A stretch of 57,595 nt of DNA from an uncultured Hyphomicrobiaceae bacterium (GCA_964650735.1 CAZYUT010000001.1:1-57595); one strand, 5' to 3'. Shown: positions 1 to 6,943, counted from the first letter of the stretch. Program-made: numbers and translations. Notes: generated by a model from the letters alone, not told the origin.

Positions 1-407
1 TCGGCAAGGCGAAGGTCGTGCGCGCCGGCGATGCGGTGACCATCGTGTCGTTCTCGCGCGGCATGGTCTATGCGCTGGAGGCCGCCGAGCAGCTCGCCGC
101 GGAAGGCTACGAAGCCGAGGTGATCGACCTGCGCACCCTGCGCCCGCTCGATATGGCCACCGTGATCGAATCGGTTAAGAAGACGAACCGCCTCGTCGTC
201 GTGCAGGAAGCCTGGCCGATAGCGTCCATCGCGTCTGAGGTTTGCGCGCAGGTGGCGCGTGAGGCGTTCGATCATCTCGACGCGCCGCCCACGCCCGTCA
301 CCGGCGCGGACGTGCCGATGCCTTATGCCGCCAACCTGGAGAAGCTGGCGCTGCCGAGCACCGAGCAGGTCGTCGCGGCGGCGAAAACGGTCATGTATGT
401 TGATTAG
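1..407 (+). CDS. pdhB: Pyruvate dehydrogenase E1 beta subunit, 5'-truncated by the window edge
   Basis: Transketolase C-terminal domain motifs EVIDLRTLRPLD and DVPMPYAANLEKLALP; frame is open from the window start; upstream of pdhC and lpdA. Confidence 0.96.
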   Translation, partial: GKAKVVRAGDAVTIVSFSRGMVYALEAAEQLAAEGYEAEVIDLRTLRPLDMATVIESVKKTNRLVVVQEAWPIASIASEVCAQVAREAFDHLDAPPTPVTGADVPMPYAANLEKLALPSTEQVVAAAKTVMYVD

Positions 408-437
408 TGCCGCGCCGGCGCGCGGGCAGGGGGGTGC

Positions 438-884
438 ATGCCAGAGGCCAGTTTGATTGATATCACGCAGTTGCGGATCATGGCCGCCGATACCGTGCTG
501 TCCGTGGTGTCCATCGTGTTCGGGATCATTTCGGCCTATATCACCGGACTGTTCTTCTTCCTGAACCGCGCGCCCCTCCTGCTGCGCTCGCTTGCTTTTG
601 CGCTGCTGAGCATCGCCATCTTTTTCGTTGGCGCGATTGCGCTGGCTGTCAGCCCCGTGGCTGGCGGTCTGGTTGGCCCGGGCCGCGCCATCGACCAGGC
701 GACCGCTGCAACGATATCGGCGATCCAGCGAGGCGACTTCACCCCGGCATTTTCGTTGATGGATATCCCGGTCGGCTACCTCGCCGGCCTGATCATCGGC
801 CTCGCACTGTTCGCGGCGGTTTATCTCGCACTGCTCTACATGACATTTTTCTACCGCTGGCCGAAAACAGATGCGCCAGCCTAA
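438..884 (+). CDS. Hypothetical 3-TM membrane protein (paralog A)
   Basis: 148 aa with three hydrophobic segments; G-rich SD (AGGGGG) before ATG; clear paralog of the next ORF (SAYI..L.FFL..AP..LR.LAF; VYLAL.Y.TF.YRW). Confidence 0.85.
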   Translation: MPEASLIDITQLRIMAADTVLSVVSIVFGIISAYITGLFFFLNRAPLLLRSLAFALLSIAIFFVGAIALAVSPVAGGLVGPGRAIDQATAATISAIQRGDFTPAFSLMDIPVGYLAGLIIGLALFAAVYLALLYMTFFYRWPKTDAPA

Positions 885-906
885 GCCATCGGCCCGGAGA
901 CCGCGC

Positions 907-1332
907 ATGGAGATGACATTCGGCGAACTTACGCAGGGGCGCATAGATGCGATGAGCTTCATCCTCGGCCTGTTCTCGATGTTCTTCACGATCTGCTCGG
1001 CCTACATTGCCGCGCTGTATTTCTTTTTGGGCGTCGCGCCGTTTGCCCTGCGCCTTCTAGCCTTCTTCGTGTTGACCGTCAGTTTCCTGTTTCTCGGCGG
1101 CATGGCGTTCACGGTCAGCGATCTGGTCGAAGTGGTCATCTCGAACTGGGAACAGGCCGACATTCCCTTCTACAGTCAGCAAACGGTGCGCGAATGGCTG
1201 ACGCATCTGGGCGGGAGCTTCCAATTATACTACATCGGCGCATTGCTCGGCTGGGGCTGTGCCTTTATCGTTTACCTCGCGCTTGCCTATCTGACCTTCG
1301 GATACCGCTGGCGACCCGCCGCCGCGCGATGA
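907..1332 (+). CDS. Hypothetical 3-TM membrane protein (paralog B)
   Basis: 141 aa from ATG 907 (GGAG at 896-899); three hydrophobic segments; paralog of 438..884. Confidence 0.85.
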   Translation: MEMTFGELTQGRIDAMSFILGLFSMFFTICSAYIAALYFFLGVAPFALRLLAFFVLTVSFLFLGGMAFTVSDLVEVVISNWEQADIPFYSQQTVREWLTHLGGSFQLYYIGALLGWGCAFIVYLALAYLTFGYRWRPAAAR

Positions 1333-1361
1333 TCAACCGATAAATCCGAACGGATAACACC

Positions 1362-2702
1362 ATGCCCATACCGATCCTGATGCCCGCGCTGTCGCCCACC
1401 ATGGAGGAGGGCAAGCTCGCGAAATGGCTGGTCAAGGAGGGCGACAGCGTCGCGCCCGGCGACATCGTGGCGGAAATCGAGACCGATAAGGCGACAATGG
1501 AGGTCGAGGCGGTCGACGAAGGCACGCTTGGCAAGATCCTCGTCGATGAGGGGACCGAAGGCGTCGCGGTGAACAAGCCGATCGCGGTGCTGCTCGGCGA
1601 GGGCGAGGACGAATCGGCGCTGGCAAGTTTCGACCCGAGCGGATCGCAGACCAAGGCCGAGCCGGAGCCAGCCGGGAGCCAGGCAGCCGGCGGGCCGGGC
1701 GAAGCCGCATCCGCAAGCCAAGGCGCTCAGTCCGCGCCGCAAGCCGCACAGTCGCCGAATGGGCAGGCCGGGCGCGTGCGCGCCTCTCCGCTGGCGCGGC
1801 GTCTTGCGCGCGCGCTCGGGCAGGAACTGGCGAAGCTGCACGGATCGGGGCCGCACGGGCGCATTATCAAACGCGATGTCGAAAAGGCTGCCAAGGGAGC
1901 GCCCGCGGCACCCGCGTCTGCCGCCGCAACGGCCGCGCCGGGTGTCCCGACCACCACGCCGAAGGCGATGACCGACCGGCAGATCATGGCGATGTTCGAG
2001 CCGGACAGTTACGAACTCGTCCCGCATGACAACATGCGCAAGACGATTGCTGAGCGCCTCACGGTCGCCAAGAGCACGATCCCGCATTTCTATCTGTCCA
2101 TCGACTGCGAACTCGACTCGCTCATGGCCGCGCGCCAGCGTCTGAATGCGCGTGCGCCGAAGGAAGGGGAGGGCGCTTACAAGCTGTCGGTCAACGATCT
2201 CATCATCAAGGCGATGGGGCTGGCGCTGCGCGATGTGCCCACGGCTAACGCGGTGTGGACCGACAGCGGCATCCTCATCTCGAAGCATACCGATGTGGCA
2301 GTCGCCGTCGCGGTCGAGGGCGGCCTATTTACGCCCGTTTTGCGCGACGTGGCGGAGAAGAGCCTCGTGCAGTTGTCCAACGAGATGCGTGATCTCGCAG
2401 ACCGTGCGCGAAAGAAACGGCTCGCGCCGCACGAATATCAGGGCGGCACGACGTCGATCTCTAACCTGGGCATGTATGGCATCCGCCGCTTTGATGCGGT
2501 GATCAACCCGCCGCACGCGACGATCCTCTCCGTCGGCCAGGCTGAGCGGCGTCCGGTCGTCAAAGGTAGCGAAATCGAAATCGCCACCGTCATGGCCTGC
2601 ACACTGTCCTGCGACCACAGGGTGGTGGACGGCGCGCTCGGCGCGCAACTGCTTGCCGCGTTCAAGGGCTATATCGAGGAGCCGGTGACGATGCTGGCCT
2701 GA
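1362..2702 (+). CDS. pdhC: Pyruvate dehydrogenase E2 dihydrolipoamide acetyltransferase
   Basis: Lipoyl domain ETDKA, E3-binding domain ASPLARRLA...GSGPHGRI, catalytic DHRVVDG. Confidence 0.97.
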
Positions 2703-2731
2703 CACGGGCCATAGACCAACAGGGGGCATGC

Positions 2732-4135
2732 ATGGCCGAAACATCCTTTGATCTTGTCGTTATCGGCGCCGGGCCAGGCGGCTATGTCGCTGCGATCCGC
2801 GGGGCGCAGCTCGGCATGAAGACGGCTGTTATCGAGCGCGAGCACCTTGGCGGCATCTGCCTGAACTGGGGTTGCATACCGACGAAGGCGCTGCTGCGCA
2901 CGGCCGAGGTGTATCATCTGATGCAGCATGCCGATCAGTTTGGTCTGAGCGCCAAGGATGTCGGCTACGATACCGAGAAGGTTGTCAAGCGCTCGCGCAA
3001 GATTGCCGGGAAGCTCGCGGGCGGCGTCGGCTACCTGCTCAAAAAGAACAAGGTGACGGTGATCGACGGCGAGGCCAGGCTGGCCGGCAAGGGCAAGGTC
3101 ACGGTCTCGGCCAAGAACGGCGGCCCGAACGAGGTCACGGCCAAGCACATCATCATCGCCACCGGCGCGCGGGCGCGCACGTTGCCGGGCATGGAACCGG
3201 ACGGCAAGCTCATCTGGACCTACAAGGAAGCCATGGTGCCCGACATCATGCCGAAATCCGTGCTGGTGATCGGCTCCGGCGCGATCGGCATCGAGTTCGC
3301 CAGCTTCTACCGAACGATGGGCGCGGAGACGACGGTCGTCGAGATCATGGACCGGATCGTGCCGGCCGAGGACGAGGAAATCTCCGCGCTGGCGAGAAAG
3401 ACCTTCGAGAAGCAGGGCATGACGATCCACACCGAGGCGAAGGTGGAAAAGCTTGAGCCCGGCAAGAACAAGGTCAAGGCGACGATCCAGACCGCGGACG
3501 GCAGAAGCGAGGAGCAGACATTCGAGCGGGTCATCCTCGCGGTCGGAATCACCGGCAATGTCGAGGGGATCGGACTGGAAAACCTCGGCGTAAAGGTCGA
3601 AAAGGGCCACATCGTCGTCGACGAGTGGAGCCATACGGGCGTCGAGAACATCTACGCCATCGGCGACGTGACTGGTCCGCCCTGGCTCGCGCACAAGGCC
3701 AGCCATGAAGGCGTCATCTGCGTCGAGAAGATCGCCGGGGTCAACAACGTCCATCCGCTCGACACGACGAACATTCCGGGCTGCACCTACTGCAACCCGC
3801 AGATCGCATCGGTCGGGATGACGGAGGCCGAAGCGAAAGCAGCCGGGCATGAAGTCAAGGTCGGCCGCTTCCCGTTCCAGGGCAATGGAAAAGCCTTGGC
3901 GCTCGGCGAGGATCAGGGCCTCATCAAGACCGTCTTCGATGCGGACACCGGCGAACTGCTCGGCGCGCACATGATCGGCGCGGAGGTCACCGAGCTGATC
4001 CAGGGCTACGGCATCGCCAAGACGCTGGAGACCACCGAGGCCGAACTCATGCATACGGTGTTCCCTCACCCCACTCTGTCCGAAATGATGCACGAGTCGG
4101 TCCTCGACGCCTACGACCGGGTCATTCACATTTGA
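2732..4135 (+). CDS. lpdA: Dihydrolipoamide dehydrogenase (E3)
   Basis: GAGPGG FAD motif, GGICLNWGCIP redox disulfide, HPTLSE. Confidence 0.97.
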   Translation: MAETSFDLVVIGAGPGGYVAAIRGAQLGMKTAVIEREHLGGICLNWGCIPTKALLRTAEVYHLMQHADQFGLSAKDVGYDTEKVVKRSRKIAGKLAGGVGYLLKKNKVTVIDGEARLAGKGKVTVSAKNGGPNEVTAKHIIIATGARARTLPGMEPDGKLIWTYKEAMVPDIMPKSVLVIGSGAIGIEFASFYRTMGAETTVVEIMDRIVPAEDEEISALARKTFEKQGMTIHTEAKVEKLEPGKNKVKATIQTADGRSEEQTFERVILAVGITGNVEGIGLENLGVKVEKGHIVVDEWSHTGVENIYAIGDVTGPPWLAHKASHEGVICVEKIAGVNNVHPLDTTNIPGCTYCNPQIASVGMTEAEAKAAGHEVKVGRFPFQGNGKALALGEDQGLIKTVFDADTGELLGAHMIGAEVTELIQGYGIAKTLETTEAELMHTVFPHPTLSEMMHESVLDAYDRVIHI

Positions 4136-4226
4136 TTGCGCAGAGCGTGCGGTCTACAACCTCGGGAATCCAAGTGGGTGTCTGTCTGGCCATTCGGCAC
4201 GTCCTGTGAGGTGGGGAGGGCTGAGA

Positions 4227-5378
4227 ATGCTGCGCGCGATCGCTGCACTGCTGCTCGCGGTTGCCCTGCTGCCGCTGTCGGCGCAGGCGCAAGATCTCTG
4301 GCGCGCGGGCGCATCGGTGTCGGTGGTCGCGCAGGGCGAGCCGGATGTCTGGGTGGCCGGCGCTTGGGTCAGCGTGCGCGGGCAGACGGCGCGCGATATC
4401 TGGGCCGCCGGTGCAATTGTCGAGATCAACGCGGAGACAGGGGCGGATGTCTGGGCGGCGGGCAGCCGCGTGACGATTGGCGGCCGCGTGGGCGAGGCGC
4501 TCACCGCCACCGGCGCGGAGGTTGACGTCTCTGCGCGCGTTTCTGGTCCGTCTCGTGTCGCCGGCGCGCGGGTGACGTTCGCGCCCCGTGCCGTGCTCAA
4601 TGGTCCGGTTCGCGGCGCCGGCGCGCTGGTCGATTTCCGCGCCCGCGGAAGCGGCAATATCAGTCTGTCCGGCGCGGAAGTCACCTTCGATGGCCAGACC
4701 ACCGGCGATGTCGTGATCCGCGCGGAAACAGTGCGCATAGGCGCGCAGGCTGAGATCGGCGGCAATCTGGAGATTTATTCAGATCGGCGGCCCGAAATCG
4801 CCCAGCAGGCGCGCATCGGCGGGCGGCTGGTGACGCTCGGGCTTGAGGATGCCGACTGGCCCGACGGCGGCGGTTTCCCCGCGCTGCTCGCTGGTCTGAT
4901 CGCGCCGGCGATCTTTGCCATCAGCGCGTTTATCCTCGGCCTGGTTGCCATCTGGCTGGTGCGTGGAGCAGTGGAACAGACCATCGACACCTTCATGGAG
5001 CGGCCGGGCGGCAGCCTGCTGCGCGGCCTGCTGACCCTGGTGGCGGTGTTTATCGGCGCGGGCGCGCTGGTGGCCCTGTTTGTCGGCTTCCCGCTGGGGC
5101 TTGCTGTACTGTTCACCGCGCCGGTGCTCATCATCACCGGGCTGGCGAGCGCAGGCCTGAGCCTTGGCGAATGGATCGCCAACCGCGCAGGCGAGCCGAC
5201 GAGCGTGGGCGGACGCATTGGCCTGATGGCGCTTGGCGTTTTCATCCTCGCGCTGGTCGGGCTTATTCCGATGGCCGGGGTGCTGCTGGTATTGCTGGCG
5301 ATCCTGATGGGCCTCGGTGCGGCGGTGATCACCGTGCTGTCGCGGCTGCGTCCGGAGACCCCGCCTGCGGGATATTGA
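4227..5378 (+). CDS. Membrane protein with signal peptide, bactofilin-like (polymer-forming) beta-helix repeats and a C-terminal multi-TM domain
   Basis: Signal peptide ending AQA; about 9 repeats of about 17 aa (DLWRAGASVSV, DVWVAGAWVSV, DIWAAGAIVEI, DVWAAGSRVTI...); about 5 TM segments; GGAGGG upstream of ATG 4227. Confidence 0.8.
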   Translation: MLRAIAALLLAVALLPLSAQAQDLWRAGASVSVVAQGEPDVWVAGAWVSVRGQTARDIWAAGAIVEINAETGADVWAAGSRVTIGGRVGEALTATGAEVDVSARVSGPSRVAGARVTFAPRAVLNGPVRGAGALVDFRARGSGNISLSGAEVTFDGQTTGDVVIRAETVRIGAQAEIGGNLEIYSDRRPEIAQQARIGGRLVTLGLEDADWPDGGGFPALLAGLIAPAIFAISAFILGLVAIWLVRGAVEQTIDTFMERPGGSLLRGLLTLVAVFIGAGALVALFVGFPLGLAVLFTAPVLIITGLASAGLSLGEWIANRAGEPTSVGGRIGLMALGVFILALVGLIPMAGVLLVLLAILMGLGAAVITVLSRLRPETPPAGY

Positions 5379-5402
5379 ACGGCGCGGCGCCCGGCCGCAT
5401 CC

Positions 5403-5431
5403 CTTTACCGCTTGAAGCGGGACGCCTATTT
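5403..5431 (+). promoter_or_regulatory. Putative sigma70-type promoter of lipA
   Basis: CTTTAC-N17-CTATTT resembles the rhizobial CTTGAC-N17-CTATAT consensus. Confidence 0.35.
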
Positions 5432-5477
5432 CTGAAACAATCATAGAGCGGGCGCGATTGAACCGCATAGGACAACC

Positions 5478-6467
5478 ATGGTCACAATTCTCGACACACG
5501 CGAGCAAGCTGCGCCGACCAATGACCGCGCCGCGCTGCGCCACCCGGAAAAGCGCAACCGGCCCGACACGCCGGTCCAGCGCAAGCCGGAATGGATTCGC
5601 GTCAAGGCGCCGGTCTCAGAGGGCTATCACGAAACCCGCAAGATCATGCGCGGGCTGAAGCTCGCCACGGTCTGCGAGGAAGCGGGCTGCCCGAACATCG
5701 GCGAGTGCTGGGAGAAGAAGCACGCCACCATGATGATCATGGGCGAGGTCTGCACCCGCGCCTGCGCCTTCTGCAACGTCACGACCGGCCGGCCTGCGCC
5801 GCTCAACCCGGATGAGCCCGCGCATGTCGCTGAAGCCGTCGCGGCGCTGGGCCTCAACCATGTTGTCATTACCTCGGTGGATCGGGACGATCTCGATGAT
5901 GGCGGGGCCGGGCATTTCGCCGCCGTCATCCGCGCCATCCGCGATACCGCGCCCGGGACCACGATCGAGGTTCTGACGCCGGACTTCCTGCGCAAGGACG
6001 GCGCGTTGGAACAGGTCATCGCGGCCCGGCCCGACGTCTTTAACCACAATCTGGAGACGGTGCCGTCGCTCTATCTGACTATCCGCCCCGGCTCGCGCTA
6101 CTTCCATTCCCTGCGGCTGTTGCAGCGCGCCAAGGAGCTTGATCCCAACATGTTCACCAAGTCCGGCCTGATGGTCGGGCTGGGCGAGACGCGCAACGAG
6201 CTTCTGCAGGTCATGGACGATCTGCGCAGCGCCGATGTCGATTTCCTGACGATAGGCCAGTATCTCCAGCCCACGCGCAAGCACGCCGCGGTCAACCGCT
6301 TCATCCCGCCGGATGAGTTCGCCGCGCTGGAGCGCACGGCCTACGCCAAGGGTTTCCTGATGGTCTCGGCAAGCCCGCTGACGCGCTCGTCCTACCATGC
6401 TGGCGAGGATTTCGCACGGCTGCGCGCCGCGCGCCAGGCGGCAAACGCCGGAGCGCAGCTGGCATGA
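5478..6467 (+). CDS. lipA: Lipoyl synthase
   Basis: [12 protein letters not shown] and radical-SAM CTRACAFC motifs; C-terminal RSSYHA. Confidence 0.97.
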
Positions 6468-6943
6468 CGCAGTTCCGCACCACCCGCCGCGTGGCGCATT
6501 CCGCCGACAACATGTTCGCCCTCGTGGCCGATGTGGAGCGGTATCCCGAGTTCGTGCCCCTGTGCGAGCGGCTGCGTCTCAACGAGCGAGAGCAGCACGC
6601 GGAGGGCGAAACGCTCGTGGCTGAGATGACCGTGGCCTATCGCTTCCTGCGCGAATCGTTCGTCACCCGCGTGCAGCTGCGCCCGGAGCAGCGATATATC
6701 CTCGCGGAGTATGTCGACGGCCCGTTCCGGTATCTGGAGAACCGGTGGACCTTCACGCCCATCGGCGCAAATAGCTGCGAGATCGGCTTCGATCTGGCTT
6801 ACGAGTTCCGCTCGCGGGCGCTGCAGATGCTGATGGGCCAGGTCTTCGATCGCGCTTTCCGAAAGTTCGTGACGGCCTTCGAGGCGCGCGCGGACCAGAT
6901 TTATGGCAAGGCCGACTGGCGGGTTCGCACCGAAAACGTCTAG
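6464..6943 (+). CDS. ratA: RatA/PasT (Coq10-like START/SRPBCC domain) protein
   Basis: [32 protein letters not shown]; ATGA overlap with lipA. Confidence 0.88.

Follow-up and report, generated by a model that had tools for sequence, protein, structure and literature searches.

A three-helix membrane protein family with members in the pyruvate dehydrogenase operon and in unrelated operons of Hyphomicrobiaceae-like bacteria

Why should a pyruvate dehydrogenase (PDH) operon carry two small membrane-protein genes between pdhB and pdhC? We met this arrangement near the start of a 57,595-nt stretch of DNA from an uncultured Hyphomicrobiaceae bacterium (GCA_964650735.1, CAZYUT010000001.1:1-57595; "the window" below means the whole of this stretch), where two adjacent open reading frames (ORFs), here called A and B, lie between positions 438 and 1332. 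An earlier note on this DNA had taken them for a diverged pair of paralogs with three transmembrane (TM) helices each that might form a PDH-coupled heterodimer, for example a carrier for pyruvate or a cofactor, or a membrane anchor or regulator of the complex. Our analysis favors a different answer, to which we assign a probability of about 0.55: A and B, members of a three-helix protein family of Hyphomicrobiaceae-like bacteria, would be passengers in the pdh operon and would have a function that does not depend on pyruvate dehydrogenase.

ORFs A and B are paralogous genes

Both the window and its contig begin inside pdhB, and the features that follow are all on one strand:

3..407, + strand: 3' part of pdhB (PDH E1 beta, C-terminal transketolase domain; Pfam Transketolase_C, E-value 1.2e-42)
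408..437, + strand: pdhB-A spacer of 30 nt with a G-rich Shine-Dalgarno-like run (from sequence)
438..884, + strand: ORF A, 148 residues, divergent extra paralog of the three-helix membrane family (from ORF, BLASTP and alignment)
885..906, + strand: A-B spacer of 22 nt with GGAG (from sequence)
907..1332, + strand: ORF B, 141 residues, ortholog of the single gene between pdhB and pdhC in related genera (from ORF and alignment; 73-99% identity within the genus)
1362..2702, + strand: pdhC (PDH E2, dihydrolipoamide acetyltransferase; Pfam Biotin_lipoyl, E3_binding and 2-oxoacid_dh)

The layout described in the earlier note, two ORFs on one strand with short gaps and Shine-Dalgarno-like sequences, was confirmed: the gaps are 30, 22 and, between B and the pdhC start at 1362, 29 nt, and G-rich or GGAG motifs stand 5-11 nt upstream of both ATGs. 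A longer B starting at the ATG at 871 is unsupported, since homologs begin at the position of 907. Related genomes have pdhB orthologs of 69-95% identity standing before the family gene or before pdhC. In a consensus scan, positions 1..6600 showed no sigma-70-like promoter, and none of the three gaps around A and B had a terminator-like site, a pattern that would fit co-transcription of pdhB-A-B-pdhC without showing it; the runs containing the stretch were seven DNA runs from two studies, with no RNA run among them.

BLASTP aligned A and B with 50/144 identities (35%, E-value 7e-20), and the 31 identities within the first 70 columns reproduce exactly the count first made by hand, as the alignment also does the C-terminal match VYLAL.Y.TF.YRW. 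A differs from the family alignment by a 6-residue insert ahead of its third TM helix. The three TM helices proposed for each protein are borne out by three hydrophobic spans in each (Kyte-Doolittle) and by three long helices in each AlphaFold2 model. In the nearest relative, genome G001, the same pdhB-A-B-pdhC order is present with 95% amino-acid identity for A and for B, and the ratio of nonsynonymous to synonymous substitution rates (dN/dS) against that genome is 0.085 for A and 0.065 for B, as compared to 0.068 for the 3' part of pdhB. Both proteins have the invariant residue at each of the 17 fully conserved columns in a family alignment of 17 sequences. Because of this conservation in a second genome, the low dN/dS and the complete set of invariant residues, A and B are beyond chance; they are real, selected, diverged paralogs. 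High-GC DNA does hold many long spurious ORFs, and A and B could on that ground be thought chance non-coding frames in a GC-rich spacer, yet the dN/dS values, the 209 homologous clusters with shared motifs described next and the confident model of B (AlphaFold2 score 87) make this next to impossible, and we consider it refuted by the family alignment, the cluster count and dN/dS.

A family without a recognized relative

Members of the family are about 135-150 residues long (130-160 for full-length homologs) and have three hydrophobic helices, with the motifs SAYI..L..F in helix 1, A-P in the turn between helices 1 and 2, and Y..AL...TFFYRW ending helix 3. The invariant positions of the 17-sequence alignment are S-A-Y-I, L, L, P, L and F in helices 1-2 and Y, A-L, T-F and Y-R-W at the end of helix 3, and an alignment of 86 sequences has Y33, L37, F40, T130, F131 and W135 conserved at 90% or more. 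A word-indexed search (90% clustering) returned 35 relatives, all called "hypothetical" where named, and a profile search of 1.84 billion representatives returned 209 clusters at E-values of 1e-3 or less, 116 of them at 1e-10 or less. Nearly all of these clusters are stand-alone proteins of about 135-150 residues. The longer matches (P0059, P0075, P0095, P0142 and P0153) seem to result from frameshifts or chimeric gene calling, and for that reason we dropped fusions as hints to function. By eye (no search was run), P0095 (197 residues) joins a NuoJ-like N-terminus to the C-terminal half of a family protein, and P0059 (294 residues) is a frameshifted family gene read into a stretch with a CxC...CxxC pattern resembling, again by eye, that of the GFA-domain ORF described below. 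Errors of assembly or gene calling probably produced both. From P0059 there is a hint that a family gene and a GFA gene can adjoin.

Taking one genome per species, 127 places on genome contigs encode a relative. The best 80 of these 127 loci, on which the locus-context counts below are based, are titled Hyphomicrobium, Filomicrobium, Rhodomicrobium, Dichotomicrobium, Hyphomicrobiaceae, Hyphomicrobiales, one "Bacterium MnTg02" and unclassified metagenome-assembled genomes of Alphaproteobacteria or Pseudomonadota. In an even sample of the window's order the family was present in 15 of 301 genomes, from a handful of families, and 18 of 40 close relatives had a match (15 of the 24 from the window's family and 8 of the 10 from its genus, where the two genomes lacking a match are 79% and 83% complete). 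The family is confined to Hyphomicrobiaceae-like lineages.

The statement that no known family could be recognized held up, as Pfam, NCBIfam, PADLOC, PHROGs and single-member Pfam scans gave no match that would explain A or B. Against the four databases the best match of either protein had an E-value of only 0.04, and Pfam hmmscan at E-values up to 1 gave two unrelated weak matches for A (best 0.13) and none for B. When the 86 members were scanned singly, no Pfam family recurred among the 25 listed of the 51 matched, the commonest being 8xMP in 5/86 members with a best E-value of 0.1. Sequence-profile matches in the PDB were only to de novo designed TM bundles (E-values 0.009-1.8), and the ESM Atlas gave only unnamed "hypothetical protein" clusters. 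Among the papers listed on 8xMP or octameric membrane proteins none was relevant, and those listed on membrane-protein genes between pdhB and pdhC in Alphaproteobacteria or on Hyphomicrobium pyruvate dehydrogenase had no such gene. By Pfam, A and B have no lipoyl, peripheral-subunit-binding, catalytic or thiamine pyrophosphate (TPP)/transketolase domain, whereas the flanking pdhB and pdhC show such domains.

Most of the sampled family genes lie outside the pdh operon

The 80 loci fall into 17 between pdhB and pdhC, 24 between a carboxynorspermidine synthase-like gene and nspC, nine directly upstream of nspC with the synthase gene further up, and 30 elsewhere. No pdh gene stands beside the family gene in 63/80 loci, and homologs are mostly single; this is largely the outcome that the earlier note had named as refuting its reading, and the PDH-coupled heterodimer is left mostly without support. 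The synthase-like gene has Sacchrp_dh domains and matches NF043000 with an E-value of 6e-122, which is under that model's strict cut-off, and the decarboxylase matches TIGR01047 (nspC) above its equivalog cut-off. Neighbors at the 30 remaining loci were identified from Pfam searches of 22 sampled ORFs, and the upstream co-directional ones included a Na/Ca exchanger (Na_Ca_ex), MgtE, an amidase, an Fe-S protein, c-type cytochromes and unknowns. Several of these loci have a 4-nt overlap between the family gene and the upstream gene, and overlaps across the family are often 1-4 nt. In 56/80 loci, by a crude stop-to-stop count, an upstream ORF of 100 residues or more on the same strand ends no more than 40 nt before the start of the family gene or overlaps it.

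The link to PDH also failed in most of the Hyphomicrobium genomes searched. When we searched five Hyphomicrobium genomes with the synthase-X-nspC arrangement, X being the family gene, using a single 134-residue PdhB fragment from the window as query, four gave no match at an E-value of 1e-10 or less, and the fifth had only PdhB paralogs of 42-46% identity. This fits older literature in which Hyphomicrobium is reported to lack PDH activity. Synthase and nspC queries had no match in the genome of the window, which is 90.7% complete. On the protein tree, loci of like context group together strongly, with seven changes against a mean of 43.6 when shuffled, as would be expected from mostly vertical inheritance with few relocations.

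The pdhB-pdhC junction as a variable slot

Five genomes of the window's family have no family gene (G012, G018, G019, G021 and G024; 95-100% complete), and in all five pdhB is followed by pdhC. In G012 there are 66 nt between the two genes; the junction in G019 holds a 153-residue GFA-domain ORF (L103:1034-1492, - strand), those in G018 and G024 a conserved 92-residue ORF without long hydrophobic stretches (L105:1209-1484 and L106:1211-1486, both - strand), and that in G021 a 114-residue ORF (L104:1150-1491, - strand). The 92- and 114-residue ORFs had no Pfam match. At a further locus (L031:5396-5992, + strand) a gene for a Uma2 putative restriction endonuclease (E-value 3e-19) stands behind pdhB and overlaps the family gene that follows it by 4 nt. 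Comparable gaps of about 540-590 nt are seen at L007 and L011. By these arrangements the junction is a permissive slot that gathers unrelated small genes, and such a slot is the simplest explanation for a membrane-protein gene at this place.

A as an extra copy

A single copy was the rule in the other carriers we examined (16 relatives and 79/80 loci). Among the 18 relatives with a match, G001 alone has the tandem pair, and the only one of the 80 wider loci with two copies (L022) is G001's own; the tandem pair was thus seen in the window genome and G001 only. Another genome with two copies, G129, carries them unlinked on separate contigs, and just one of them occupies the pdh slot. In G011, from a sister genus, an in-frame A-type remnant of about 70 residues (L016:1266-1466, + strand) stands ahead of a full B; what it retains of A is the N-terminus, at 66% identity, and the last helix, at 53%; about 75 internal codons and several invariant residues are gone, and it is a decaying A. 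Six genus mates lack A cleanly, with a pdhB-B spacer of 63-78 nt whose 3' end in most of them agrees with the 3' part of the window's A-B spacer. Since A is missing from six genus mates and decayed in G011, it is an extra, dispensable copy, and B is the ortholog of the single slot gene.

The nearest relatives of A are in G001 (95%) and then G025 (47-48%), a genome from another family of the order whose copy has a different context, downstream of an M24 peptidase gene. In a quick tree A pairs with the G025 copy with a support of 95 in the Shimodaira-Hasegawa-like approximate likelihood ratio test (SH-aLRT), outside the B clade, which has 14 rows, all pdh-linked (SH-aLRT 99). An approximately unbiased (AU) test, for which the long or gappy rows L087_1 and L100_1 were left out and the tree alignment had 145 columns, did not reject A and the B clade as one group (p 0.554). 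Both an old in-situ duplication with repeated loss and an acquisition by recombination could therefore have given rise to A.

Predicted structure and topology

The AlphaFold2 model of B, made with the 86-sequence alignment, had a predicted local distance difference test score (pLDDT) of 87.4 and a predicted template modelling score (pTM) of 0.77, with helices at residues 5-41, 46-83, 92-100 and 104-131. That of A, from 17 sequences, was weaker (pLDDT 72; helices 3-41, 47-75, 87-98 and 112-137). Foldseek against the PDB found no match at an E-value of 0.001 or less for either model. A wide VIA-align search with B returned spectrin repeats, ribosome recycling factor domains and designed bundles with Z-scores of 9-11.2 (101-131 residues aligned, root-mean-square deviation 2.8-4.8, identity 4-10%), scores that are under the tool's stated background of about 13 for helical bundles. 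The models suggest that the monomer is a generic long antiparallel three-helix bundle with a hydrophobic middle.

As averages over the 86 members, the N-terminal tail has 0.41 K+R and 2.6 D+E for a net charge of -2.2, the 6-residue turn between helices 1 and 2 and the start of helix 2 are each at about +1, the long loop between helices 2 and 3 is at -1.0, and the C-terminal tail is at +0.7. Counted member by member, K+R is greater on the side of the turn plus C-terminal tail than on the other side in 43/86 and equal in 24/86. Because the N-terminal tail is acidic and the helix 1-2 turn basic, the positive-inside rule predicts, with moderate confidence, an N-out/C-in topology. Independently of the orientation, all positions conserved at 75% or more sit in one half of the bundle, the half that contains the helix 1-2 turn and the C-terminus and would be the cytoplasmic leaflet if the prediction holds. 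Sequence and length vary among members in the opposite half and in the helix 2-3 loop. The hydrophobic helices are nearly free of charges, except for a conserved Arg at the start of helix 2, and the predicted cytoplasmic exposure comprises only the turn of 6 residues and a tail some 10 residues long.

Genes downstream in the window

Three further ORFs follow pdhC:

2732..4135, + strand: lpd-like ORF, 467 residues, 29 nt past pdhC (from ORF; name presumed from position)
4206..5378, + strand: ORF of 390 residues between lpd and lipA
5478..6467, + strand: lipoyl synthase gene lipA (Radical_SAM and LIAS_N)

From its position we presume the 467-residue ORF to be lpd; segments of 62-98% identity to it come after pdhC in related loci. 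The pdhC-lpd junction, 29 nt in the window, measures about 0.9-1.3 kb in relatives (L031, L045, L058, L074, L086 and L089), which suggests a second variable slot with extra genes. The 390-residue ORF has a signal-peptide-like N-terminus, about 200 residues of short Gly/Ala/Val-rich repeats that by eye resemble a beta-helix, and a C-terminal third that is hydrophobic; it had no Pfam or NCBIfam match. The lipoyl synthase gene is directly 3' of the pdh-lpd cluster; a cofactor-synthesis gene therefore travels with a lipoate-dependent complex. PdhB in these bacteria (L031:3932-5377, + strand, and other pdh loci) has an N-terminal lipoyl domain; residues 1-88 of the window's PdhC match a part of the same ORF that lies about 1 kb ahead of the E1 beta C-terminus. 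A lipoyl domain on alphaproteobacterial PdhB has reportedly been described already.

Discussion

If A and B are passengers whose function does not depend on PDH, as we favor, the family gene would be expressed by read-through of whichever operon hosts it. Its product would be a small inner-membrane scaffold or adaptor at the inner leaflet or cytoplasmic face rather than a solute carrier, because the conserved residues lie on the predicted cytoplasmic side and the membrane core is nearly charge-free. The protein may self-associate, probably as a homo-oligomer. Mixed oligomers of A and B may form where both exist and cannot be the family's normal state, as a single copy is the rule.

Several findings weigh against this reading. 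The neighborhood survey that the earlier note called for found 17/80 of the wider loci in the slot and bore out a strong link to it within the window's family: the family gene occupies the slot in 16/18 relatives with a match, across several genera (one relative shows a contig end with pdhC only). On the tree, moreover, the pdh-linked rows other than the long-branch L087 fall in a single clade (27 of 38 rows pdh-linked, SH-aLRT 99). A stable slot together with this clade would also fit a lineage-specific role related to PDH, though we think this unlikely. The family's second recurrent position is again between two enzymes of one pathway, the synthase and nspC; the carboxynorspermidine pathway releases CO2, as does PDH, and this common feature could hint at a shared logic. 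The 80-locus sample is rich in Hyphomicrobium, and the context proportions depend on it, just as the absences of PdhB hold for the one fragment used as query. The scaffold or adaptor mechanism and the topology are themselves inferences from sequence in which we have modest confidence.

The unlikely PDH-related role would make the slot gene an accessory in the window's lineage, an anchor or regulator that docks PDH at the inner membrane by means of the conserved motif on its cytoplasmic face, with A and B as a mixed anchor. Beyond the 16/18 relatives, the 17 pdhB-X-pdhC loci include Rhodomicrobium, Dichotomicrobium and one genome of another family of the order; the tight spacing without promoter- or terminator-like sites and the grouping of conserved residues on the predicted cytoplasmic side would also suit such an accessory. 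However, the family persists where PdhB was not found and in unrelated operons, genera of the same family without the gene retain pdhB followed by pdhC and have either nothing or other genes in the slot, repeated losses of A have occurred, and the protein is predicted to expose no more to the cytoplasm than its 6-residue turn and some 10 residues of tail. The carrier suggested at the outset, in which A and B would make a six-helix heterodimer for pyruvate, another monocarboxylate or a cofactor in the manner of the mitochondrial pyruvate carrier (MPC) MPC1/MPC2 or of semiSWEET, takes its appeal from three TM helices in each of two adjacent paralogs and from a pyruvate-consuming operon. We see hardly any chance for it: neither protein had a Pfam match at an E-value of 0.1 or less, with carrier models not among the matches; the MPC, MtN3 and PQ-loop families are absent from the listed recurring families of the 86 members; Foldseek on the PDB gave nothing at its threshold of 0.001; and the VIA-align top 50, mostly soluble helical bundles, had neither MPC nor semiSWEET, although under the rule stated for this tool a family missing from the rows is not thereby excluded. 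Nor do helices of 28-38 residues, a membrane core without charged residues, a pair restricted to two genomes, single copies as the rule and family-bearing genomes in which no PdhB was found look like such a carrier.

Two other readings take the variety of contexts as their starting point. The gene might be a mobile or selfish cassette that has no promoter and lodges within operons and at gene 3' ends, as its many unrelated upstream neighbors with 1-4 nt overlaps, its patchy distribution across the order and the attraction of a Uma2 endonuclease gene to the same slot might suggest. We rate this as very improbable, given that loci of different context have no flanking DNA motif in common (a cross-context blastn-short comparison of flanks gave eight matches, of which five involve L100 and three have one common offset in the two upstream flanks), that context is clustered on the protein tree, that there was no recombinase gene among the neighboring ORFs put to Pfam, and that purifying selection equals that on pdhB. 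Alternatively, and as a long shot, the protein could be a portable membrane tether that is translated after the upstream gene and captures the product of that gene at the inner membrane through the A-P turn and the TFFYRW motif. It is equally speculative that the captured products would be PdhB here, carboxynorspermidine synthase in Hyphomicrobium, and an amidase, peptidase or transporters elsewhere, and we put no more weight on the A/B pair being a two-subunit version of the tether.

We compared the family with the closest known systems. MPC1/MPC2 and bacterial semiSWEET are likewise small three-TM proteins, and here too two paralogs stand beside pyruvate-metabolizing genes, but A and B lack any Pfam match to MPC (PF03650), MtN3_slv or PQ-loop, are not accompanied by such proteins among the listed structural matches, have far longer helices and belong to a family also found in genomes without a PdhB match; the two paralogous subunits of MPC, unlike the single copies here, always occur together. 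KdpF, CydX, AcrZ and MgtS are small accessory membrane proteins encoded in the operons of the complexes they serve, and they resemble our family in that a short membrane-protein gene follows a larger one in tight or translational coupling, with transporters (Na_Ca_ex and MgtE) among the upstream genes here. They have one TM helix and a fixed partner, however, whereas the family has three helices in about 140 residues and an upstream partner that varies by lineage (PdhB, carboxynorspermidine synthase, amidase, M24 peptidase, Fe-S protein or cytochrome c). Class I holins have three TM helices with N-out/C-in orientation, the same number and orientation as predicted here, where the C-terminal tail is also basic; against this likeness, the family's genes lie in housekeeping operons with no phage genes among the neighboring ORFs put to Pfam, the best PHROGs matches (E-values 0.09-0.5) were to families of unknown function, and Phage_holin_3_6 was matched by only 2/86 members (best E-value 0.027). 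The best structural alignments of the B model, to generic antiparallel three-helix bundles such as spectrin repeats, domain I of ribosome recycling factor and designed proteins, involve soluble proteins at scores below the helical background and reflect a common architecture, not a family relation.

Were the tether reading true, it would imply membrane-localized PDH and membrane polyamine synthesis in Hyphomicrobiaceae, and a real link to the upstream enzymes, if there were one, would amount to a novel means of bringing soluble metabolic enzymes to the membrane. What the locus offers now is a modest orphan-family finding, suited to a family definition of the domain-of-unknown-function (DUF) type: it delineates a coherent, selected family without a Pfam or NCBIfam model or a characterized relative, in the budding, prosthecate Hyphomicrobiaceae-like lineages. 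Because the pdhB-pdhC junction takes up unrelated small genes and the same family nests in a polyamine-synthesis operon of genomes without a PdhB match, position in a central-metabolism operon is by itself insufficient for assigning function.

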